This document shows positions 8,348-52,060 of a DNA stretch of 64,000 nt, in pieces. The DNA lies in assembly GCA_964016885.1 (NCBI GenBank), contig CAXHJY010000688.1, forward strand, positions 34,562 to 98,561. The letters are read 5' to 3'. Under the pieces are notes generated by a model. The model was not told the DNA's origin. It saw only the letters and a program-made list of their open reading frames with translations, and searched no databases. A program made the translations under genes and the position numbers. Each line of letters begins with the position of its first letter. The stretch's first letter is position 1. Origin of the DNA: Eledone cirrhosa (lineage: Eukaryota).

Positions 8348-8540
8348 AACGAAGGAAATGTGGTAAGGAACCAGATGGACCATAACGCACGAAAGTACTC
8401 AATACTTAAGGTAGTAGAGTGGATAATAGGAACAAGTATGACCCCGACGGCAGAGCTCAAGCCGTTTCGACGGCTAATTCTGCGTCCAGAATTAGCCGTC
8501 GAAATGGCTTGAGCTCTGCCATCGGGGTCATACTTGTTCC

Positions 8541-8543
<3 letters not shown>
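8348..8543 (-). mobile_element. Short palindromic PLE-end insertion, family A (3' half of an HHR)
   Basis: Inverted arms 8426-8482 / 8487-8543, each reading stem II-GAAA-YGGC..GCCR-UC-GGGG. Flanked by (TA)n. Same family at 12968-13113 and 15299-15430; relative at 15825-15930. Confidence 0.8.
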
Positions 8544-8571
<28 letters not shown>

Positions 8572-8591
8572 ATCAACATAAGATGATTATT

Positions 8592-8647
8592 TCATTTACC
8601 AGTGGTTTCTTGAAAGCAAATAAATCTGCTTTCAGTCGTCAGAATGA
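8592..8647 (-). ncRNA. Type I hammerhead ribozyme (inverted copy)
   Basis: Reverse complement of 8716-8771 with one substitution. Confidence 0.83.
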
Positions 8648-8715
8648 AAAAATCCTGGTGTTTTTCAAATCCTAGGTTTTTCAAATCCACATTCAATAAA
8701 AACACCAGGATTTTT

Positions 8716-8771
8716 TCATTCTGACGAGTGAAAGCAGATTTATTTGCTTTCAAGAAACCACTGGTAAATGA
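8716..8771 (+). ncRNA. Type I hammerhead ribozyme
   Basis: TCATT-CTGACGA-gTGAAAGCA..TGCTTTCAa-GAAA-CCAcTGG-TA-AATGA: intact core and three stems. Confidence 0.85.
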
Positions 8772-8898
8772 CATAATCATCATATGTTGTTTATTACATA
8801 AATAAGCTCTGTAACCTACATAGAGCACTCTTTTTTCCTGGACCTTTCCGACGGAATTACTTCATTTATATATAAATATATATATATGTATATATATA

Positions 8899-10375
8899 TA
8901 AGTATAAAAGAGAAAACACAGGTAAGCATTAAGAGAAGGATTTTATCCAGGTATTTACGACCATTTCATTGGTAAGTGCAACCTTATATTGCTATACTGC
9001 AAATAGCAGCCACTCAATTATAATTGTTGTTCACAGTCCAAATTTTCAAAATAGTGAGTAAGTTACTCTTGAAATAATTCTTAATATATAGAGAAAAACA
9101 TTTATTTGGAATTGTATTTACTAGTATAGAGAGAGAGGAATCAGAAGGTGAGGGGACAAACGGAATAGTATAGAGAGAGGAAGGGGGAGAGTTAGGAAGT
9201 AGAGTGACAAACTGAGATGGAGGGAGGGGTAGAGGTGGAAGGATTCCTTGATCAGTTTTGATATTCAGACTTCATGTCTTGGAATGTAGTGAGTTAAAGA
9301 GAATTAAATTGATCGTAGTGGGAGGGATGGATAGAGAGAGAGAGAGAGAGGGGAGATATAAAGAGATAAATATATATATAAAGATAAAGATAATAATGAC
9401 AAAAATAAAAGCAAAGAAGGGGGGAGAAAGAAGAAAAGATAGCCAAGAAGGGGAGGGAAGGAAGGAAGAAAACGAAGAAATAGAAGAGGAATGAAAGAGA
9501 AGGGGGGGATATAGGTATTGGTTTTTGTGGGTAATTAAATAGGCTTAGATACAACAAGAGGGTATAAAGTCTAAGTATATGCAGTTTGTCAGTTGGTAGT
9601 AAGAGGTTAAGGGGTTAAGGGTTCGATTTGCACTTGTAATGCGAAAACTTCTCTTTGAGTCTATGGTTACAATAAATTGATCTTTCGATTTTATTGTTGA
9701 GTAACTTATTCTTCAAACTCAAGATGTGGAACAGCTCAAGGTCACATAATCGACAGCTTCTCATACCACTCCGATATGGGTGCGCGTGTTCGATAATTTT
9801 TTCCACTTCAGGGTGTATTGATGGTTACTTTCCCTCAGTTGCCAGGTCTTGTTTGCAAGGGTAGTTACCTAACGATGCTGGGAATGTTTCATTGCGTAAC
9901 GGTGTGTATACCAACAAGCTTTAAATGTATTCCCAGTCGCTCCGATGTAATACCATTTCTGGTTGTCTGATTCCACTGCGCATTGGTAAACCAGGTTAGA
10001 GACTGCATACATTCATTTTGTAATGGACAGGTTTCAGGTAGGTGGTAGTTACAATTCTCTATATATTAAGAATTATTTCAAGAGTAACTTACTCACTATT
10101 TTGAAAATTTGGACTGTGAACAACAATTATAATTGAGTGGCTGCTATTTGCAGTATAGCAATATAAGGTTGCACTTACCAATGAAACGGTCGTAAATACC
10201 TGGATAAAATCCTTCTCTTAATGCTTACCTGTGTTTTCTCTTTTATACTTTAAGATTGAACGGAATTCTTACAAATTTGTGGAGTTACCCCTAACCGTAC
10301 GTTGAAACCATCCATGAAACTGGCTTTCTTAACCACGAACTGGATCACAAAAAGCAATTTTCTGCTTCCCTAACT
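8899..10375 (-). mobile_element. 5'-truncated Naiad-type PLE (GIY-YIG remnant 9615-10045) with inverted 3'-end copy
   Basis: Minus strand CPLQNEC..NLVYQC..YYIGATGNTFK..H..TLA..WQL..WK..A.PY..CRLCDLE..LLN..CNH, with a stop and frameshifts. Inverted repeats 8900-9094 / 10057-10250; tail to 10375; degenerate HHR 10097-10198; (TA)n flanks. Confidence 0.85.
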
Positions 10376-12945: not shown

Positions 12946-12967
12946 ATATATATATATATATATATAA

Positions 12968-13113
12968 AATGAAGGAGTTGTGGTAAGGAACCAGATGGAC
13001 CACAACGCACCAGAGTACTCAATACTTAGGGTAGTAGAGTGGGTAATAGGAAAATGTATGACCCCGATGGCAGAGCTCAAGCCGTTTTTCCGTCGGGGTC
13101 ATACATTTTCCTA
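12968..13113 (-). mobile_element. Family A PLE-end insertion, second copy, partly palindromic
   Basis: Similar to 8348-8470. Inverted arm CGTCGGGGTCATACATTTTCCTA joins (TA)n. Confidence 0.78.
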
Positions 13114-13203
13114 TATATATTATATATATATATATATATATAGATACATATGCATATATATATACTTACACGGAGAGAGAGAGAGATACATATACATATA
13201 TCC

Positions 13204-13408
13204 GTATGTAGATGACAGGTGAGAGAAAAGAGTACTCAATGCCAAAGTAGAGTTTATATATTAAATTGCTATGTAGTGAGCCATCTTATTCTGGAGTTTC
13301 ACCTGCATACACACAAGATCATCAAACAAGACCGTCTTGTCTGATGATCCTGTGTGTATGTAGGTGATACTCCAGAGTAAGAAGTTACACTACTTAGCCA
13401 TAATATAT
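13204..13408 (-). mobile_element. Diverged palindromic PLE-end insertion, family C, with two decayed HHRs
   Basis: Arms centred near 13332. Plus arm CTGATGA-tCCTG..TAGGt-GATA-CTCcaGAG-TA; minus arm TTGATGA...GAAA-CTCcaGAA-TA. Confidence 0.7.
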
Positions 13409-14074
13409 ACATATATATACACACAAGTCTGTAACTCTTTAAAATTTACACACACGCACATATATATATACACAATGCATTTCCTATTTCAGTCATGTTG
13501 CTACAATAAGAAGTTCACTTTTCAACCACAAGGACCTAGGTCCTAACCCTACATTTGTCCAAATAAACTTATTTCTAGAAAGTTACTTGTATATTTAATC
13601 TTGTGTATCATTTGTCCATATTTTCTAAGCATTTATGTAATTATATCCTAGGAATAGATTATTAAAGTATCATCTTTATTTTAAATCATTTCCATGTGTC
13701 AAGAATTAACAAACTATGGGGTTTCTTTTATGCAAACCATAAAAATACAAATTTCCCAATTTGTATGATTGTTCATATATTCAGTAATCCTGGTATATAT
13801 GGCATACCAATCCTGCACTCTAAAATCTAAATACATTTGGTGCTCTTGCTACTAGTATTATAATAATTTCATTTGAGTAGGCATCAAACATTTTTGTAGT
13901 AGAGGCATAGTCAATTGAATAGATTTGGTATAATACTGGTATTCTATCAATTGCAGGGTAGGGTTGAAAGGTAAAATTAAGCCTGTAGAATGTGAATTCA
14001 GAATGATAAAATTAAATAATCTATGTCATCACTTCAGCACTTCTATTAATTCACAACCCTGATAAAGATTTCAC

Positions 14075-15245: not shown

Positions 15246-15298
15246 TCCAATCTTCAAATGTCCTATTTTAACACACAAACATGTATATATATATATAT

Positions 15299-15430
15299 AA
15301 AGGAATTGTGGTAAGGAACCAGATGGACCATAACGCACCAGAAATACTCAATACTTAGGGTAGTAGAGTGGGAAATAGTAAAAAGTATGACCCCGACGGC
15401 AGAGCTCAAGCCGTTTCGACGGCTATTTCT
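15299..15430 (-). mobile_element. Family A PLE-end insertion, third copy, truncated in HHR stem II
   Basis: Matches 8352-8481; starts at (TA)n. Confidence 0.75.
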
Positions 15431-15578
15431 TGGTGGCCCTTGAAATATGTATAATGAAATAAATATGGTTTTATAAATATAGTTTCAATTTGTTAATATA
15501 TTGTATATTTACTCCAATAATTTGTTGAGTGGTTTATATCAGTTATAAAAATATTTTGCTTGTTGTATCCCAACAAAT

Positions 15579-15610
<32 letters not shown>

Positions 15611-15615
<5 letters not shown>

Positions 15616-15792
15616 GCTTCTACAGGACTAGAACTGTTTCATTCGTGAGAAATCATCAGGAAGCTCCTGATGATTTCTCACAAATGAAACAGTTCTAGTC
15701 CTGTAGAAGCTCTTCTATATTAAAACTTTTATACTCTGCTATGTATTGAGTACCTTACTTACTGTGGTTACCTCCGATTCAACCCGGAACAA

Positions 15793-15795
<3 letters not shown>
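15611..15795 (+). mobile_element. Short palindromic PLE-end insertion, family D, with back-to-back HHRs
   Basis: Arms 15612-15660 / 15666-15714 around AAGCT, a tail to 15795, and (TA)n on both sides. Confidence 0.82.
15615..15665 (-). ncRNA. Type I hammerhead ribozyme
   Basis: AGCTTC-CTGATGA-tttctcacgaat-GAAA-CAGttctagtcCTG-TA-GAAGCT; 6-bp stem I. A mirror copy lies on + at 15662-15711. Confidence 0.82.
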
Positions 15796-15824
<29 letters not shown>

Positions 15825-15829
<5 letters not shown>

Positions 15830-15928
15830 AAAGAGTCAGGACCCCAACAGCTGAGCTCTGGCTGTTTCGACAGCTAGATTCGAACGTTATGTTATGGTCC
15901 ACATGGTATCTTACCACACCTTTTTTGT

Positions 15929-17531: not shown

Positions 17532-18550
17532 TTTCGTTTCTGAATTTGTTTAGCAAGATTCTTTATCTGAAAACGTGTGTTGAAACCGATATTGTTATAC
17601 TTTGGGAGGGTCATGTTGCCAATAAGAAACACACGCACCAGTTGCTTTCACTTCAATTTATTATAAATTAAATTTATAAATTTAGGAATTTATAAATTTC
17701 CGCTTGGTTGGGTGGTTCCACAACCAGACGATTGTTCATATATTGTCAGTTCTTTCGTCACACATTCTGTGACCTCTTCAGTGACTGGGGATTCTTTTCT
17801 TTGTTTTTGTGCCTCTCCTTTGTTCTGTTCTACGCCATCTTGTTTTTGTGTGTGTTGTGTGCTTAGTTTGCACATGTGTTACATCCGGGTGTCTGTGTGT
17901 GTTTATATTTGTTTATTTATTTGTTTATTTACATGTTACTGGTTGGTTGTTTGTTCTATGTGCGTGTGTGTTTTCATTTTGTCCTTAATTTTAAGTTGTG
18001 ATGTTGCTGTTCCACTCATGTTTTCTATTTAATTTTGGTTGTAATTCATTTATGTTTATTGCCTCTGTGATTTGTCTAAACATTGCGTCACAGAGGCAAT
18101 AAACATAAATGAACTCCAACCAAAATTAAATAGAAAGCATGAATGGAATAGCAACATCACAACTTACAATTAAGGACAAAATGAAAACACACACGCACAT
18201 AGAACAAACAACCAACCAGTAACATGTAAATAAACAAATAAATAAACAAATATAAACACACACAGACACCCGGATGTAACACATGTGCAAACTAAACACA
18301 AAATCAAGATGGCGTAGAACAGAACAAAGGAGAGGCACAAAAACAAAGAAAAGAATCCCCAGTCACTGAAGAGGTCACAGAATGTGTGACGAAAGAACTG
18401 ACAATATATGAACAATCGTCTGGTTGTGGAACCACCCAGCCAACTGGAAATTTATAAATTCCTAAATTTATAAATTTAATTTATAATAAATTGAAGTGAA
18501 AGCAACTGGTGCATGTGTTTCTTATTGGCAACATGACCCTCCCAAAGTAT

Positions 18551-18558
<8 letters not shown>
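17532..18558. mobile_element. ~1 kb palindromic PLE-end-like insertion, family E
   Basis: Inverted arms 17589-18070 / 18088-18558, a one-sided tail 17532-17588, (TA)n on both sides, and an HHR-like core in each arm. Confidence 0.8.
18362..18402 (+). ncRNA. Hammerhead-like motif lacking the UH cleavage dinucleotide
   Basis: GTCA-CTGAAGA-gGTCACAgaatgTGTGAC-GAAA-GAAC-TGAC; identical in the mirror arm (~17745-17785). Confidence 0.55.
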
Positions 18559-26711: not shown

Positions 26712-28030
26712 CAGCAAAACTATATGGAGGAGAAGGCAATACATTTAAAAACAAGATTTACTTCTTACACAGTGTTTCATCTAAAGTACCATTACAGGTC
26801 TATATATATGCATATCCATATATATTATTATAAAGCTCATGCACTTCAGAATCTTCAGAGAAGAAATTTTATTGTCTTTAATGATGTTGCTGGAGGAAAG
26901 TCCAATCTGTATAACAGCAAAACGAATTTATCATTTAATGGTATAATTAATCCTTCAGATGAATGCTTAGAGACAAATATACATCGGCGTTCATACCTTG
27001 ATCTGTAATACGTTTAAACGGAGAACAAACTTATTTATCTAAAATGGAGGCTATAAAGGGGCATAATTATCTAAGTGCAATAACTGTGGTATATTTAAAA
27101 AAAAATTAATTATAACTTGCCAAAGTTAAGTGACATTGAGAGTAGATGTTAGGTGGTGTGTTGGGGGCCAAGGTGGTGTGTTGGGGGCCAAGGGGGCCAA
27201 GGTCTTTAATTAAGTCATCAATTATAAGCTGCAGTGGTCTAGCATTTATTAAGGTGGGGAAGAGGGAAAGGAGAAAAATACTTTTTAAAAAAAATTTTAG
27301 ATATCCTAACTACTCTATAGAAAATAGCTAATAGGGTTGAGGGAGGAAATTGAGGCTGAACATTTTAGATGGCTATATGAGATCATAGGCTCTGTTAGAG
27401 AAACAGTAGGGAAGCCTGTGTGAGCAATTGATTACTGCTTCGGCTCTACTGTTAATAAGTGTAGGTGCGGAGCTTGTCATATAATATGCCCCATCAGACA
27501 CAAATTACATTTCTTCTTAAAGTTATAAGAGGCTGCCCTCTCTATTATACTCCATTGGGTTGTGTAACTAGTGTTGGAATCTATTAATTGAGTAATATAG
27601 TTTGTGAGAGAAGTTGAGAACTTGAGTTTTCTATTTTTAAACGAATGGAGATGAGATCTAAATCCAGTTTTGAATTCATTAGAGGTAGCTCCTATGGACG
27701 ATTTAATATTATTATCTGTAGTGACTGTGCACTAATAGATTACATTACTAACTAGGCAATGACCCTGAAGTGGACAGTTTCTAGGGGTACTATAATTACA
27801 GTTCTTGTGGTTATTTTTTACTATTGTATTCTGTCAATCATTTAAGCTATGGTTATTTACATCAAATCACGTGCTAGTATTATGCATGTTAGCGTTATAA
27901 TCATTGCCACAATGGCCACCATCATAACCATCACTAATAGTAAAGGAATCAATATTACTATTATCATTAATACCGCCATAATAATTACTATTAATTACAA
28001 TAACTATTACAATACCATTATTACAATAAC
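26712..28030 (-). mobile_element. 5'-truncated degenerate Naiad-type PLE (GIY-YIG remnant ~27390-27800)
   Basis: NCPLQGHCLVSNVIY*C..SIGATSNEFK..HLHSF..TSL..WSIIERAASY..CNLCL..LINSRAE..CSH. HHR near the 3' end; (TA)n on both sides. Confidence 0.82.
26761..26864 (-). ncRNA. Type I hammerhead ribozyme with enlarged stem II
   Basis: CTTCT-CTGAAGA-tTCTGAAGTGC...GTACTTTAGAt-GAAA-CACtGTG-TA-AGAAG. Confidence 0.75.
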
Positions 28031-28098
28031 TATATATATATATAAGTATAATAAAATAACAGGAGGCTGGAGTTGTGTAAATCCTTGAAAGGTTTATT

Positions 28099-28156
28099 AT
28101 ACTATGATCATTTCAATGACCGGGTTCCGTATGAATCCGGTGATATCATCAGGTAT
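28099..28156 (-). ncRNA. Type I hammerhead ribozyme (inverted copy)
   Basis: Mirror of 28322-28379, with ACCGG/CCGGT pairing in stem II. Confidence 0.85.
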
Positions 28157-28321
28157 TCGAAATATAATAAATGCATGTAACAGATAAAATCCATGGGGCT
28201 GAAAATCATAGACTCGAGGACCGCTGGCTAAAGTGGAAGATGCTAGATGGTCGGTTGTCCTCAAGTCTATGATTTTCAGCCCCATGGATTTTATCTGTTA
28301 CATGCATTTATTATATTTCGA

Positions 28322-28379
28322 ATACCTGATGATATCACCAGATTCATACGGAACCCGGTCATTGAAATGATCATAGTAT
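28322..28379 (+). ncRNA. Type I hammerhead ribozyme
   Basis: ATAC-CTGATGA-stem II-GAAA-TGATCA-TA-GTAT; palindromic stem III. Confidence 0.85.
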
Positions 28380-28570
28380 AATAAACCTTTCAAGGATTTA
28401 CACAAGTCCAGCCTCCTGTTATTTTATTATAATATTTATCTCCGTACTCGCACCACCAACTACACAAACGAAGACGGTTGAGCTGCTTTACGTTGAGTAC
28501 TCCCCATATTATTACATCAAGATTGACCATACGGAATGACCAGCTCTATCCAGTGGTGAACCTTCAAACC

Positions 28571-28611
<41 letters not shown>

Positions 28612-42216: not shown

Positions 42217-43414
42217 CATCATCATCATCATCATCATCACCGTTTTACGTCCGTTCTTCCACGCTAGCATGGGTTAGACGGGTTGTCCTGTTGTGGGCAG
42301 TGTCTGGTCGGCTGACCATTCCTTGCTCATACAGGAACTGATCTGGCTTGATTTCTACAGCTGGATGCCCTTCCTAACACCAACCTCATTTACAGTGAGT
42401 GCTGGGTGCTTTTTCGTGGCGCCTACACGTCCACTTTACAGTGTGGGCTGGGTGCTTTTTTGCCGTGGCACCTCCACGACCACCTTGCGGTGGGGGGGGG
42501 GCATATTGTTTATATGCTTCAGCATGTACCCATGGGAGGTCGGGTACCCTGTATTACTGCGTGACGCCAGAAGTCACGGTCGTGTGTCATTGACTTTGAG
42601 AGGTGTAGTTGGGTAAGGTCGGCTTTTATCACCTCATCCCAAGTCATCTTGGGTCTCCCCACTCCGCGGTTTCCATCAACTTCTAGTGCTCTGCACCTTT
42701 TTATGCAGCTGTCATCCTTCATACGCATCACATGTCCATACCAGCGTAACCGCCTCTCCTGCACACAGCATTTGATTCCTCTTATGCTCAGTCTCTCTCT
42801 CAATTCCTTTATGCTTTGTCGTTCACGTATATTACTGTTACACATCCATCGGAGCATGCAGGCTTCGTTTCTCTCTAATCTACGTAAGTCTTCCACCTTC
42901 AGCGCCCAGGTCTCACTACCATGCAACATCGCTGTTCGGATACACGCATCATACAGTCTGCCTTTCATTCTGAGGGAGAAGCCTTTTGCAGCTAGCAGTG
43001 GTAGTAGTTCCCTAAACTTCTTCCATCCCGTTCTTACCCTAGTTATTGTACTTTCTGAGCACCCACCTCCGTTGCTAATTCGGTCACCTAGGTAGCAGAA
43101 GCTGTCTACTGTTTCTACAGGGCCCTCCCAGAGATTGGTGGTACTTGTTTCCTGTGGCTGTTTGCTTGCTGTTTCAGCACAGCTGCTGCATGTGAATCCT
43201 ACATTCTTAATTAAGCTTCCTGAGATCCCGCTACATCTCTTGTGTACCCATTGTTTGCATTTGGGGCAGAGAATGGAGTTCCTACCTACACCTTTCCTAC
43301 ATACTGAGCAAGGCCATTTCCCTGAGGGGATCTGGGTTCTGTTTTCTCGTCTACTTATAAGGACCTTAGTCTTTGTCATGTTGACTTTGAGGCCCTTTCT
43401 CTCTAGTCCCTGCT
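42215..43414 (-). mobile_element. 5'-truncated young RTE LINE (open frame to stop at 42519)
   Basis: [13 protein letters not shown]-like Cys cluster, [21 protein letters not shown] and [12 protein letters not shown]; (GAT)n tail; near-identical to 53992-55190. Confidence 0.95.
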
Positions 43415-44430: not shown

Positions 44431-44525
44431 TACATACATATATATATATACATATACATATATACATATATATATATATACATATATACATATATACATA
44501 TATATATACATATATACATATATAC

Positions 44526-44572
<47 letters not shown>

Positions 44573-44575
44573 TAT

Positions 44576-44620
<45 letters not shown>

Positions 44621-44661
44621 TATATAATATAAGATCAAAAGATGGTTAAAGGAGTTCCATA

Positions 44662-44732
44662 TATTTTATTATGCGCATTTCAAAAACAAACATCATCATG
44701 CAATAATATTTGTGTTTTCATCAGATAAAATA
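44662..44732 (-). ncRNA. Type I hammerhead ribozyme (inverted pLTR copy)
   Basis: Reverse complement of 48724-48794. Confidence 0.85.
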
Positions 44733-45576
44733 GGAGAACATGATATGAAGGCTAAAAAACACTTGTGGATAGTGCAGTTTTAAATCAACATATGAAAAGT
44801 GGTTTTAGATTGATGTGTGATATTGGGAAAAATATTTTATTTAGAGAGGGGGGGGGGGGGGAGGATGAAAAGGGAAGGAGATGAGAGGGAGAGATGGGTG
44901 ATAGAGAGAAAGAGATAGTTTTTATAACTGAGAGGAGATATATTTTTTACATAGAGAGGTTGAAAACCGTTGGAAGATACTGTATAAATTAAAAATTTTG
45001 AAAATTAACGAAGGGAGGATATGTGCGAGGAAAAAATATTTTATTTAGGGAGGGGGGTGGAAAGGATGAAAAAAAAGGGGGAGGAGATGAGAGTGAAGGT
45101 GGAGAGGGAGAGATGGGTGATAGAGAGAAAGAGATAGTTTTTATAACTGAGAAAAAGATATATTGTTTTAATATAGAGAGGTTGGGAACCGTTGGAAGAT
45201 AATGTATAAATTAAAGGAATTTGAAAATTAACGAAGGGAAATTATGTATGAAGATAGAGAGAAAAAAATAATGATTGTGGGTGAATATTCTAACGTCAAA
45301 AAAAGAAATGTATGTATTGTGGCAATTTCAAAATTAGCGAAGAGAAAAATTGTTAAGGTTTGTGTGTAGAAGGATTTGAGAAAAATAATGTGAAGTTAAA
45401 GTTTGTATATTGATTGAATTGATAATATGTGCGAATAAAGAGTTAATATGTATTAATAATGAGTTCGTTGATGGGGAGAAAAAAATAATAATAAATTAAG
45501 GATGAAATTGAGATTAAAAAGATTTATGATAGAGAGAAAAGAATAGAGAGAAAAGAATAGAGGAAGAATTAACTAA

Positions 45577-47721
45577 AATAATAAAAAAAATCTTAAATTC
45601 AAGAGATACCCTTACAAAGGACAAGAGCACCTTGTAAATCTCAAGAAGACAATCTCTAACCTAAATTCCTCAAAAAATGTTTTAGTCCACTCTGACAAAA
45701 CCAATAACCTATATGGTATTTCCAAGGATAATTATAACAACCTTATCCTAAAGGAACTTAGGAAAAAGTATCGTAAAACCAACCATGAAAATTTAGAATG
45801 CATAAACCTTGAAGCCTATGAGATTATGTCAACACTTGGCATTGAAAAAAAGACCGAACCATTCCTCCCAAGAACTCCGAGGATAAATCTCAAGGATCAC
45901 AAAAACAATTTTCGCACTGAACTACCTGTTAGATTAATCGCCCCCTCTAAATCTGATCTGGGGGTTGTTAGTAAAGCCATCTTGGATAGGATTATCCCAC
46001 AGGTTAGTTCTTATTGCTCTTCTTTGAACCTAAATTTATGGTTTGGTACTTCTGAAGTGATTGGCTGGTTCAACAAATTGGATAATAAAAACAAACTAAA
46101 ATTTATTCAATTTGATATTGCCAGCTACTATTCCTCCATTTCGCCTTCACTTCTCAATAATGCTCTATCTTTCGCACTTAAATATTCTGACATCACCACA
46201 GATGAACTTCACATCATCCTCACCGCACGTAAAACCATCCTAGAGTCCAACAACGAATATTGGACCAGAACCGATACCTCTAACAACTTCGACATCACAA
46301 TGGGAGCATCCGATTCATCCCAATTGACTGATTTAATTGGTATCTTCATTTTGAACTCTTTGAGTCGGAAAATTCCTCAACTTCGCGGTGGAATTTATCG
46401 TGACGATGGGCTCTTAACTATCCTAAATTGCAATATAGTTAAACTTAATATTATTAAGAACAATATACATAATCTCTTTAACCAACATAACCTAAAAATT
46501 GAATTTGATAATAGTATCAAACTAGCTAATTTCTTGGATGTATCTCTTAATCTTGACACTGGCCTATATTACCCTTACCATAAAAACAATGAGAACCTTA
46601 ATTATGTTAACTTTAAATCTAACCATCCTACCAATATCAAGAATGCTATAGTTAATAATATTGGAAATAGAATATCTAACATATCTTCTAATAAAAACAT
46701 CTTTGATGCTAACGCCAATTACTATAATAACGCACTTTCTAAAGCCAGCTATCCAGATAAAATCAAATATAATAAAGAAACAAATTCTAGAAAAACTTAC
46801 AGTAGAATAATTAATCATAACCATTCCAATAATTTTAATAAAAGACCTAGATACAAAAACATAATCTGGTATAATGCTCCTTTCTCCATCTCTATTAATA
46901 ACAATATTCCTAAATTATTTTTTAGTGCCTTAAATAAATGCTTCCCTCCCTCACATATCTATAGTAAAATATTTAACAAACACACCATCAAATTTTCGTA
47001 TTCTACATCCTCCAATATTTCCAACATCATCTCTAAACACAACAACAAAATATTAAATACTAAATCTCTTCCTTCCAATATTGAATTTCATAATAACAGT
47101 AATAGTACTCCCGACGTCATTGTAAACCCTAGGCTAACTTCTGTAAACCCAAATACAACGTCAAACACAACTTCGCTAAATGTTCATAATCCAACTCTAA
47201 ATCAAGAAACTATTATTCCTATCGCAAACAACTTCTCCAATCCAATTCCTTCTATAGATAACACTAGATCACTCATTAATAATCTCTCTAATTGCAACTG
47301 CCGCATTAAAAATAAATGTCCTCTCAACAACCATTGCCTCGATAAAAACTTAATTTATGAATGTAAAATTATAACTAGCACCAATTCCTTCACCTATTTT
47401 GGCTCCACTTCCACCTCTTTTAAAGCTCGTCTCTATAATCATCATTCATCTTTCAAATACAAACTTAAAAGAACTAACACTGCTCTCTCAGAACTCATAT
47501 GGTCCTTAAAAGACAAAAACATTAAATATACCATCTTTTGGAAGAAGATTTCTTCTGCATCCTCATACTTGAACAGCTCTCTATCGAAAATCTGTAATCT
47601 CTGCCTAAATGAAAAATTTACCATTATCTCTAACCTAGATTCTATAATAAATAGACGCTCAGATTTGTTTTCTATCTGCCTGCATAAATTCCATAGAACT
47701 TTTCACAAAGTATACAGTTAA
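45577..47721 (+). CDS. PLE reverse transcriptase + C-terminal GIY-YIG endonuclease (N-truncated; first ATG 45826)
   Basis: Frame open from 45577: SDKTNNLY, RLIAPSKSDLG, FDIASYYSSI, FDITMG, GIYRDDGL, FLDV, SNHP, IIWYNAPF, KIFNKHTIKFSYS, CNC..CPL..C, LIY..YFGST, FKAR..H, CNLCLNEK, IN.RSDL..CLH. Naiad assignment is from recalled motifs. Confidence 0.93.
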   Translation, partial: NNKKNLKFKRYPYKGQEHLVNLKKTISNLNSSKNVLVHSDKTNNLYGISKDNYNNLILKELRKKYRKTNHENLECINLEAYEIMSTLGIEKKTEPFLPRTPRINLKDHKNNFRTELPVRLIAPSKSDLGVVSKAILDRIIPQVSSYCSSLNLNLWFGTSEVIGWFNKLDNKNKLKFIQFDIASYYSSISPSLLNNALSFALKYSDITTDELHIILTARKTILESNNEYWTRTDTSNNFDITMGASDSSQLTDLIGIFILNSLSRKIPQLRGGIYRDDGLLTILNCNIVKLNIIKNNIHNLFNQHNLKIEFDNSIKLANFLDVSLNLDTGLYYPYHKNNENLNYVNFKSNHPTNIKNAIVNNIGNRISNISSNKNIFDANANYYNNALSKASYPDKIKYNKETNSRKTYSRIINHNHSNNFNKRPRYKNIIWYNAPFSISINNNIPKLFFSALNKCFPPSHIYSKIFNKHTIKFSYSTSSNISNIISKHNNKILNTKSLPSNIEFHNNSNSTPDVIVNPRLTSVNPNTTSNTTSLNVHNPTLNQETIIPIANNFSNPIPSIDNTRSLINNLSNCNCRIKNKCPLNNHCLDKNLIYECKIITSTNSFTYFGSTSTSFKARLYNHHSSFKYKLKRTNTALSELIWSLKDKNIKYTIFWKKISSASSYLNSSLSKICNLCLNEKFTIISNLDSIINRRSDLFSICLHKFHRTFHKVYS

Positions 47722-48723
47722 TATTCAATTCTTTATCAATTTAGAATCTTTTCTCAAAGGCACATATACATACACCTCTTTAAAATATACCCATCTACCT
47801 TACTTTAAAGGGCATTATACACTCTATAATACTCGTTTACTCATTACCCTCATTCTACCTTCTTGTAAAATCATAACATTTGTTTTTGTCATTTGAATAT
47901 TCATCCGCAATCATTATTATTTTTTCTCTCTATCATAAATCTTTTTAATCTCAATTTCATCCTTAATTTATTATTATTTTTTTCTCCCCATCAACGAACT
48001 CATTATTAATACATATTAACTCTTTATTCGCACATATTATCAATTCAATCAATATACAAACTTTAACTTCACATTATTTTTCTCAAATCCTTCTACACAC
48101 AAACCTTAACAATTTTTCTCTTCGCTAATTTTGAAATTGCCACAATACATACATTTCTTTTTTTGACGTTAGAATATTCACCCACAATTATTATTTTTTT
48201 CTCTATCTTCATACATAATTTCCCTTCGTTAATTTTCAAATTCCTTTAATTTATACATTATCTTCCAACGGTTCCCAACCTCTCTATATTAAAACAATAT
48301 ATCTTTTTCTCAGTTATAAAAACTATCTCTTTCTCTCTATCACCCATCTCTCCCTCTCCACCTTCACTCTCATCTCCTCCCCCTTTTTTTTCATCCTTTC
48401 CACCCCCCTCCCTAAATAAAATATTTTTTCCTCGCACATATCCTCCCTTCGTTAATTTTCAAAATTTTTAATTTATACAGTATCTTCCAACGGTTTTCAG
48501 CCTCTCTATGTAAAAAATATATCTCCTCTCAGTTATAAAAGCTATCTCTTTCTCTCTATCACCCATCTCTCCCTCTCATCTCCTTCCCTTTTCATCCTCC
48601 CCCCCCCCCCCTCTCTAAATAAAATATTTTTCCCAATATCACACATCAATCTAAAACCACTTTTCATATATTGATTTAAAACTGCACTATCCACAAGTGT
48701 TTTTTAGCCTTCATATCATGTTC

Positions 48724-48794
48724 TATTTTATCTGATGAAAACACAAATATTATTGCATGATGATGTTTGTTTTTGAAATGCGCATAATAAAATA
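48724..48794 (+). ncRNA. Type I hammerhead ribozyme in the PLE 3' pLTR
   Basis: TATTTTAT-CTGATGA-long stem II-GAAA-TGCGCA-TA-ATAAAATA; 8-bp stem I and palindromic stem III. Confidence 0.88.
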
Positions 48795-48917
48795 TATGGA
48801 ACTCCTTTAACCATCTTTTGATCTTATATTATGCATACTCCAGTCCCACAAACTGTAGAGTGCTTCTTATCCGATATCTGCATTGCTTTATTGTACTACA
48901 ATAAAACTCAACTCCTA

Positions 48918-52060
<3,143 letters not shown>

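Follow-up and report, generated by a model that had tools for sequence, protein, structure and literature searches.

Insertions of Penelope-like retrotransposons (PLEs) in Eledone cirrhosa nearly always end at two sites, S1 and S2, each lying a few nucleotides upstream of a hairpin (H1 and H2, respectively). The two sites, the two hairpins, the pairing of one S1 end with one S2 end and the independent lengths of the two arms can be read directly from the sequence, and they suggest that each hairpin of the 5′ leader probably holds a reverse transcriptase (RT) that starts inside one shared RNA, from either nicked (TA)n strand, leaving insertions that end 3–9 nt upstream.

Our window, a 64,000-nt stretch of contig CAXHJY010000688.1, contains one ORF-bearing insertion of family A (44624–48917), with the following parts.

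44438–44623, no strand: left (TA)n/(TACA)n target tract, read from the sequence.
44624–45545, minus: inverted arm of 922 nt, duplicating 47918–48832 with 98.8% identity to the right arm; its outer end is S1 and abuts (TA)n.
45546–45590, no strand: inversion junction, consisting of a 14-nt repeat of the arm's inner end and ~30 nt of filler, followed by ORF sequence (delimited by eye against the full-length copy L271).
45577–47721, plus: 5′-truncated open frame, 714 aa stop to stop, with RT, CxCx5C linker and C-terminal GIY-YIG endonuclease (EN) without CCHH.
48726–48792, plus: hammerhead-like motif of minimal type I form; the core is at 48732, stem III is palindromic and the cut is predicted after 48786.
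48825–48832, plus: site S1, an AT patch and the end point of tail-less arms, 4–7 nt 5′ of H1 in this copy.
48837–48861, plus: hairpin H1, with a basal stem of 4 bp, a 3′ bulge of 2 nt and an upper stem of 4 bp.
48833–48917, plus: 85-nt tail terminating at S2.
48918–52057, no strand: right (TA)n/(TACA)n target tract, read from the sequence.

In the full-length copies of family A (L271 and L292), H2 starts 4–8 nt past S2, and the ATG lies 80 nt past S2; for the insertion at 44624–48917, both H2 and the ATG fall outside the window.

By its motifs and domain order, this element is a Hydra-clade PLE. Its single ORF, which was aligned to two intact families and resembles Hydra proteins, combines an RT with a C-terminal GIY-YIG EN, and the element shares with the Hydra clade of EN+ PLEs (Craig et al. 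2021, PMC8557442) the change of DKG to DKT, the CxCx5C linker, the absence of CCHH, the CxxC and CxH around E and N, a hammerhead-like motif in the pLTR (here read by eye, below the Rfam threshold), (TA)n on both flanks and inverted pLTRs with a tail. Of the N-terminal RWK motif, RW is present in L271 and the third residue is not K. Hydra elements are generally <3 kb, whereas a long 3′UTR brings the family A unit to ~3.5 kb or more (L271), and tails here are mostly 55–145 nt, compared to the 30–40 bp described for PLEs (PMC8557442). The open frame matched no Pfam family at E ≤ 0.001, an Rfam scan at the gathering threshold returned no match, and scans of metagenomes found no relative. A Neptune placement, first suggested by the linker, was dropped against the published Hydra definition (PMC8557442): the element has no CX2-5CxxC linker together with CCHH within GIY-YIG, as in Neptune and Nematis, and its EN is C-terminal, unlike the N-terminal EN of Naiad and Chlamys. 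Another family in the same genome (L065) carries a Neptune-type linker plus the two cysteines.

The window holds several further insertions, mostly short palindromes.

8348–8542, minus: leader-only palindrome of family B, H1 at 8397–8420, S1 at 8426 (H2 visible in L307).
8567–8866, plus: family C palindrome, H1 at 8806–8826.
12966–13114, minus: second family B palindrome, S1 identical to that of the first copy.
13200–13415, minus: family D palindrome, old, H1 at 13234–13253.
15609–15795, plus: family E palindrome, H1 at 15733–15751.
15826–15927, no strand: B-related insertion with non-overlapping arms and no hairpin, made up of an inverted S1 arm and only the final ~40 nt of the tail.
28047–28575, plus: family F palindrome, H1 at 28439–28498 with a long loop (H2 visible in L231).

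The initial annotation had claimed that, in six hairpin-bearing families, the shorter inverted arm always stops just before the hairpin and joins (TA)n there. Within the window this holds at all six places, where the symmetry ends before the hairpin and the other arm enters (TA)n, with gaps of 4 nt (48832/48837), 5–6 nt (8426/8420), 9 nt (8796/8806), ~2 nt (13256/13253), 12 nt (15720/15733) and 7 nt (28431/28439), the weakest case being 13256/13253, an old copy with arms ~83% identical. The three shared ..CCTA|TATA ends were likewise found, at 8542, 13114 and 15826. Two further elements, at 8900–10374 and 17533–18556, have the layout of the six families and no canonical H1, and the six families are therefore a selected set; the former, a Hydra-type element, has only a degenerate hairpin ~14 nt away.

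Genome-wide, we counted 467 arms of the six families, leaving out arms ending >60 nt upstream of H1. (TA)n was joined by 398 of them, and 388 of these 398 ended at one of the two sites (184 at S1, 204 at S2), with 6 ends upstream and 4 within the tail, although each reference contains 13–96 TA dinucleotides and just 5–9 fall within the two windows. Arms met incidentally in loci not fetched for the family in question, with the full reference permitted, gave 54 ends at S1, 58 at S2 and 5 'upstream', the last being an artefact of a family C reference that extended into the flanking TA tract. In the five families with both hairpins known, 291/300 TA-joined ends lay −6 to +20 nt upstream of H1 or H2, and the junction interval overlapped the 3–9 nt before the hairpin in 134/147 cases at S1 and 121/144 at S2, with distances peaking at 5–8 nt and 6 nt, respectively. 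TA microhomology of ≥2 nt was present at 110/147 S1 and 120/144 S2 junctions, in line with the annealing at an AU-rich patch proposed in the initial annotation. Families A, C and E each use two registers, at distances of up to 12–17 nt; in A and E the choice of register tracks the longest TA run. End positioning is a 3–9 nt window with a selectable TA register, not an exact ruler, and the distribution of ends is bimodal, with peaks at S1 and S2.

H1 is a conserved hairpin of the form RCTC-stem-bulge-GAGY, starting 4–9 nt 3′ of S1 in the six families. H2 is of the same type and lies 3–9 nt past S2, so that the tail corresponds to the H1–H2 spacing, and since H2 is outside the inserted DNA, the signal must sit on the template. 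It is visible only in copies reading through into the 5′UTR, and was seen in 9 of the 10 families with such copies: found in A first, it was then predicted and recovered in B, F, G, H, c3, c11, c14 and L024, and was unclear in c15. Families C, D and E yielded no read-through copy, and cluster c3 has H2 with no clear H1. The spacing of the two hairpins varies over 78–144 nt. S1 stays fixed relative to H1 despite a ribozyme-to-hairpin distance that varies over 66–113 nt, which supports the proposal that an end is measured from the hairpin; that proposal had confined the rule to one end, having missed H2, whereas both ends precede hairpins.

The motif, whose strict form is expected by chance in a given 10-nt window at 0.26%, was called in 12 of 19 multi-copy clusters, a 13th being added from a read-through copy; not every family has it. 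Its stems covary (outer pair A-T in 11 and G-C in 11; first upper pair C-G in 12 and T-A in 9), and upper-stem pairs formed in 64/78 cases versus 38 in shuffled sequences. These are anchored counts, used because MAFFT alignments did not follow the hairpin structure; the rows were chosen by eye, with 1 of 26 mis-anchored, which makes the invariant core of the hairpin circular as evidence. Predicted stability is weak (0 to −12 kcal/mol), and the opposite strand folds about equally well, so that folding energy does not distinguish the sense strand from its complement. The same motif occurs in Hydra consensus sequences from coral and sea cucumber. In the consensus files of Naiad/Chlamys the full motif was found by eye at one non-coding place only, among 27 occurrences of six 8-mers, a count that includes Hydra hits and misses some hidden by line breaks. 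The two-site layout recurs in a Neptune-type family, where the hairpin is a different one; of 30 loci, 29 matched the search pattern, and none of these gave a read-through copy of that family. A '30-nt tail' of cluster 4 was artefactual and was traced to a TA run inside the loop of H1. The main text of PMC8557442 contains neither 'hairpin' nor 'stem-loop' and ascribes the tail to EN cleavage; its consensus file contains the hairpin, unremarked. We found no description of the duplicated hairpin in the literature searched.

Among 183 head-to-head pairs, 162 combined S1 with S2, 3 were S1+S1, 9 were S2+S2 and 9 had an end elsewhere, so that the 'always' of the initial annotation does not survive. 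S1+S2 pairs thus make up 162 of the 174 with both ends at a site, where about half would be expected if two complexes chose freely. Both arms carry the same subfamily alleles at a frequency of 0.86–0.98, versus 0.46–0.50 between insertions (four families), and the S2 arm extends past S1 and through H1 in 150/162 pairs. Two cross-family S2+S2 joins suggest that two RNAs may sometimes be used. While 86 of the 162 pairs are symmetric, the S1 arm reaches further upstream in 56 (44 with overlapping arms, 12 with non-overlapping arms) and less far in only 20 (p = 4e-5), contrary to its description as the shorter arm. The 44 overlapping asymmetric pairs are no older than the symmetric ones (arm identity 0.979 vs 0.975). 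S1-arm sequence is missing from the tail arm in the 56 pairs, which were therefore not made by fold-back, and this supports the earlier suggestion that both target strands prime cDNA. By its sequence, the B-related insertion at 15826–15927 cannot have arisen by fold-back either.

In full-length copies, both sites are located in the 5′UTR upstream of the ATG, and are thus internal to the RNA rather than the RNA 3′ segments they had been thought to be, as judged from genomic ends and read-through 5′UTRs at the DNA level. Common inner ends, at −171 in A, about −73 in B and −230 in F, fit transcription start or palindrome-driven joining alike. Two fixed internal sites with the tail as their interval match PAc, a Poseidon PLE (Frangieh et al. 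2024, PMC11167929), in which both target strands are nicked and extended in vitro from two internal sites flanking the tail; two-site internal initiation on both strands is thus already known. The PAc system also shares AT-rich targets and a stem-loop at the start. The Eledone families differ in having TA microhomology and sites in the 5′UTR that precede two sequence-conserved hairpins by 3–9 nt, and the parts of the PAc account consulted assign no hairpin to each site and draw no link from the two sites to inverted arms.

These observations are consistent with a mechanism in which the GIY-YIG domain would nick both strands of (TA)n, and each target 3′ end would pair with the U/A patch immediately 5′ of a hairpin. 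Both cDNAs would then extend toward the 5′ end of the RNA, with the one primed at S2 crossing the tail and H1, and their 3′ ends would be joined head to head, often with filler. A start in the leader would give a short palindrome and, on a tandem transcript, a start in the downstream pLTR would give an ORF-bearing copy.

Identical DNA ends and spacing are predicted if the hairpins instead direct RNA cutting or 3′-end formation just upstream, followed by ordinary end-primed TPRT from those RNA ends. We regard this as unlikely: two separately ended RNAs would not yield S1+S2 in 162/174 pairs, cutting a shared RNA at S1 would halt the S2 cDNA, which nevertheless passes S1 in nearly all pairs, and in PAc, template 3′ extensions left the main product unchanged (PMC11167929). 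A reading in which the hairpins serve as DNA marks and the EN makes staggered cuts at S1 and S2 to resolve a DNA intermediate is quite unlikely, even though PMC8557442 words the tail as arising from EN-mediated resolution. Staggered cutting would naturally leave an S1 end together with an S2 end, either strand can form the hairpins, and the Penelope EN is reported, by way of a citing paper, to need the tail for recognition; yet the stem halves are spaced 7–67 nt apart, unlike a double-stranded site, sense-strand upper stems contain G-T 10 times versus A-C 4 times (a weak bias), and this reading does not account for a head-to-head inversion whose inner ends are independent and which contains filler.

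Self-priming has been proposed for rotifer PLEs (PMC3846280), and S2 might accordingly be the sole priming site, with a cDNA that folds back at a palindrome, copies itself, stops at H1 and joins (TA)n by microhomology. The symmetric pairs, which often have a short palindrome or stem at their centre, fit this equally well, as do the shared alleles and the TA microhomology at S1. Still, we consider it very unlikely, given the 56 pairs with S1-arm sequence not found in the tail arm; later deletion should not bias 56 to 20, the 44 overlapping pairs are not older, and S2 having its own hairpin at an equal distance finds no account. Hardly tenable and largely refuted is a role of the hairpins elsewhere (translation, export), with ends just following the best TA microhomology. 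Both sites are AT patches, and in A and E the register goes with the longest TA run, but ends fall where only 3–6 of the 34–48 TA dinucleotides per reference lie, 3–13 nt before a hairpin (five families), and family c13, with a GC-rich patch, ends at its single TA, 4–6 nt before H1.

Hairpin-positioned priming from both strands resembles L1 twin or dual priming (PMC2837659), in which both target strands prime, the 5′ part is inverted and the junction contains filler. In L1 this happens only occasionally, from an internal site that varies, and the parts do not overlap, whereas in the Eledone families it is the usual outcome, with both sites fixed and internal and the arms mostly overlapping. 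In telomerase and DRT10, too, an RNA stem beside the template fixes the working place of a related RT (10.1101/2025.10.16.682844), and PLE RTs share a clade with those RTs in the published tree. Those stems are 5′ of the template and determine where copying stops, while the PLE hairpins are 3′ of the copied region and would determine where it starts, in agreement with S2 cDNA crossing H1; Hydra PLEs show no repeat addition, and the likeness drawn here between the stems is one of position.

To address the origin of PLE inverted repeats with a one-sided tail, PMC8557442 asks for an in vitro system, and PMC11167929 shows two start sites and not what sets them. The two hairpins are a concrete candidate cis signal, and some of the families that carry them have intact, nearly identical ORFs by the dozen. 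Families G and H encode intact proteins of 781 and 738 aa, respectively. It is an evenly balanced possibility that Hydra-clade PLEs use obligate, structure-positioned twin priming, in which a duplicated, putative RT-binding hairpin (in at least three animal lineages) would load two RT active sites on one RNA, both starting ~6 nt upstream, with the tail equal to the hairpin spacing and two ~20-nt hairpins acting as a portable signal that fixes both insertion ends. Hairpin-set priming would account for the lopsided PLE tail, and starts in the leader would explain the abundance of short leader palindromes in the Eledone genome, which are easily mistaken for MITEs. If the hairpins do position the RT, the sister group of telomerase would have a start signal made of RNA structure.

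The main element fits the definition of the Hydra clade of Penelope-like elements given by Craig et al. 2021 (PMC8557442), to which we provisionally assign it by its match to their description; a 3′UTR/pseudo-LTR and an 85-nt tail complete the following layout:

44624-48917: element between two (TA)n tracts
within 44624-48917: inverted arm of 922 nt
45577-47721: 5′-truncated open frame

Such elements are abundant in the 3.0-Gb E. cirrhosa assembly. Within the 3′UTR, 48213-48634 holds two tandem copies of ~220 nt each, about 80% alike and present in both arms. In the RT-to-linker interval, 47060-47290 encodes a ~75-aa Asn/Thr/Ser-rich stretch, absent from family H in our alignment, that resembles the N-rich inserts of rotifer Penelopes (PMC3846280). 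A hammerhead-like core lies upstream of the symmetry end in all six hairpin-bearing window families (A-F), none of the six cores reaching the Rfam threshold.

The initial annotation held that the inverted arm stops 2-12 nt before a hairpin and joins (TA)n, marking a positioned priming site; all six of its window coordinates were confirmed. We sampled 30 loci per query plus 600 kb from evenly spaced positions, with queries for A, C, D, E and F taken upstream of the symmetry end. Excluding arms ending >60 nt upstream, (TA)n was joined by 398 of 467 arms, 184 at S1 (-20 to +2 from the hairpin H1), 204 at S2, the tail end, and 10 elsewhere. Among arms from loci fetched for other purposes, counted without the 60-nt limit, 112 of 117 ended at S1 or S2; the other five ends proved to be a reference artefact.

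A de novo scan grouped 241 distinct palindromes flanked by TA into 51 clusters. The hairpin was called in 16 of the 42 tail-bearing and 12 of the 19 multi-copy clusters, at a distance that peaked at 5-7 nt across 121 copies. Clusters without a called hairpin include one Neptune-type family and two window elements, 8900-10374 and 17533-18556. The Neptune-type family (L065:4991-7476 and L381-L410) has the same two-site layout, with another small hairpin, likewise starting ACTC, 5-9 nt past S1; cluster 12 has a similar one. Features of the two window elements and of one further fragment are:

8900-10374: Hydra-type element; the long arm is the S1 arm, hairpin degenerate, ~14 nt from S1
9794-10062, minus strand: broken EN of that element
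17533-18556: family c3 palindrome, S1 fixed, H1 not clear
L063:4338-4364: canonical H2 (second hairpin) after the tail in a c3 copy
27495-27815, minus strand: broken Hydra-type endonuclease fragment adjoining the family F palindrome

S1 and S2 are internal positions, the order in the full-length copy L271 being hammerhead, S1, H1, S2, 80 nt, ATG. In this copy the S1 arm measures ~4 kb vs ~520 nt for the tail arm, so that ending at S1 is not, as had been proposed, a rule for the shorter arm. Directly past S2, L271 carries a second motif of like form, H2, which is cleaner in L292. From these two copies we predicted H2 in other families before examining their read-through copies, which extend past S2 into the 5′UTR, and H2 was found in nine of ten families with such copies, A included:

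H2 present: F (L231), L024, G (L146, L323), B (L307), H (L351)
H2 present: c3 (L063), c11 (L142), c14 (L006)
H2 ambiguous: c15 (L119)

A search for read-through copies of C, D and E found none. Families A, B, F, G and H together contribute 300 (TA)n-joined ends, with 46 further ends in other sequence and 34 read-throughs; the 300 divide into 147 before H1, 144 before H2 and 9 elsewhere. The junction interval overlaps 3-9 nt upstream of the hairpin in 134/147 (H1) and 121/144 (H2), some intervals being blurred by the use of one reference per family. H1 and H2 are spaced 78-144 nt apart in these five families; by eye, S2 lies 3-9 nt from H2 in c3 and c11, and is not fixed for c14 and L024. The observation is real and stronger than initially stated. 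The ends are fixed at two positions, both preceding a hairpin of similar form by 3-9 nt, and H2 lies outside the insert.

In the sampled sequence the strict motif begins at 275 of 1,077,045 positions, a frequency of 0.26% for a window of 10 nt. Across 26 hand-picked rows, one mis-anchored row kept, the CTC/GAG core does not vary, which reflects how the rows were chosen, and the outer and upper stem pairs show compensatory changes; upper pairs form in 64 of 78 cases vs 38 in shuffles (shuffle maximum 54). Inspecting the six new Hydra consensus sequences in the Craig et al. supplement by eye, we found the motif clear in Hydra-2_Amil, Hydra-2_Ajap and Hydra-1_Ajap, the last with two copies before the ATG and a consensus ending at an AT patch; Hydra-1_Crog has a variant at both ends, Hydra-1_Amil a weak motif, and in Hydra-1_Obim none was recognised. 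The Naiad part of that supplement contains one consensus with the full hairpin motif, non-coding and downstream of a hammerhead-like core.

Each insertion has one end of each kind, with independent arm lengths. Among 183 head-to-head pairs from seven families, 162 are S1+S2, 9 S2+S2 and 3 S1+S1, and in the remaining 9 an end lies at neither site (a count from fewer loci gave 129/138 S1+S2). We propose that both strands of (TA)n would be nicked and the target 3′ ends would pair with the U/A patch, each hairpin holding one RT, after which the second RT would displace the first cDNA and the two cDNA ends would be joined. Junction TA microhomology is mostly 2-4 nt. The S1+S2 pairs comprise 86 symmetric copies, 44 in which the S1 arm reaches further upstream, 12 without overlap (15826-15927 in the window being one) and 20 in which the tail arm reaches further. 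The symmetric half does not separate this mechanism from RNA cleavage guided by the hairpins, from resolution of a DNA intermediate by the endonuclease or from fold-back of cDNA. Fold-back, however, cannot yield S1-arm sequence beyond the tail arm, because S2-primed cDNA never copied it. Secondary deletion may have occurred, but would not be expected to produce a 56-to-20 bias towards one side; in an age comparison covering only the 44 overlapping S1-longer copies, these were as young as symmetric ones.

Arms within one insertion carry common subfamily alleles, L090 excepted. A single RNA would account for this, as would a pair of RNAs from the same locus or conversion between the arms; the strict pairing of S1 with S2 is most compatible with a single RNA. 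Cross-family joins, 2 among 180 pairs and both S2+S2, suggest either that two RNAs were used at a single target or that a nested insertion was accompanied by a deletion:

window 15298-15582: family B tail arm head-to-head with family H tail arm
L055: family E with family B

The 5′ truncations of 30 ORF-bearing family A copies (L277-L306) concentrate at S1 in 6 copies (-7 to -22) and, in 4 copies, immediately past the ribozyme's predicted cleavage point (-40 to -52), a pattern hinting that cut RNA is sometimes used as template. Inner ends of both arms cluster family-specifically, at -171 (A), about -73 (B) and -230 (F) (48662-48671, 8478-8490 and ~28210 in the window), at points that resemble putative initiator motifs yet likewise form short palindromes or stems. 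In two very young Hydra families (L321-L380), with ORFs of 781 and 738 aa, dozens of the ORFs are intact and nearly identical, and some copies lie in tandem at 4011-bp spacing (L359-L361). A 1.2-kb inverted pair (42218-43414 and 53992-55190) shares 99% identity across a separation of 10.6 kb and ends in (GAT)n; it belongs to another retroelement family, of which short copies are numerous in the window.

The core of the initial inference, both-strand priming from two starts, is already published for another clade, since Frangieh et al. 2024 (PMC11167929) show extension on both strands and two internal starts that bound the tail in an AC-rich stem-loop. Craig et al. describe the tail, inversions and (TA)n bias, their main text lacking the terms 'hairpin' and 'stem-loop'; PMC3846280 presents a self-priming model, and the main text of the Li et al. 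2026 preprint gave zero matches for hairpin, stem or tail. The literature searched, which included PMC13282606, the DRT10 preprint and PMC2837659 and excluded Arkhipova 2006, the Penelope EN study and Cervera and de la Pena 2014, yielded no description of a duplicated hairpin. What appears to be new is a candidate positioning signal, the hairpins, at both ends, in a known clade with a known kind of initiation.
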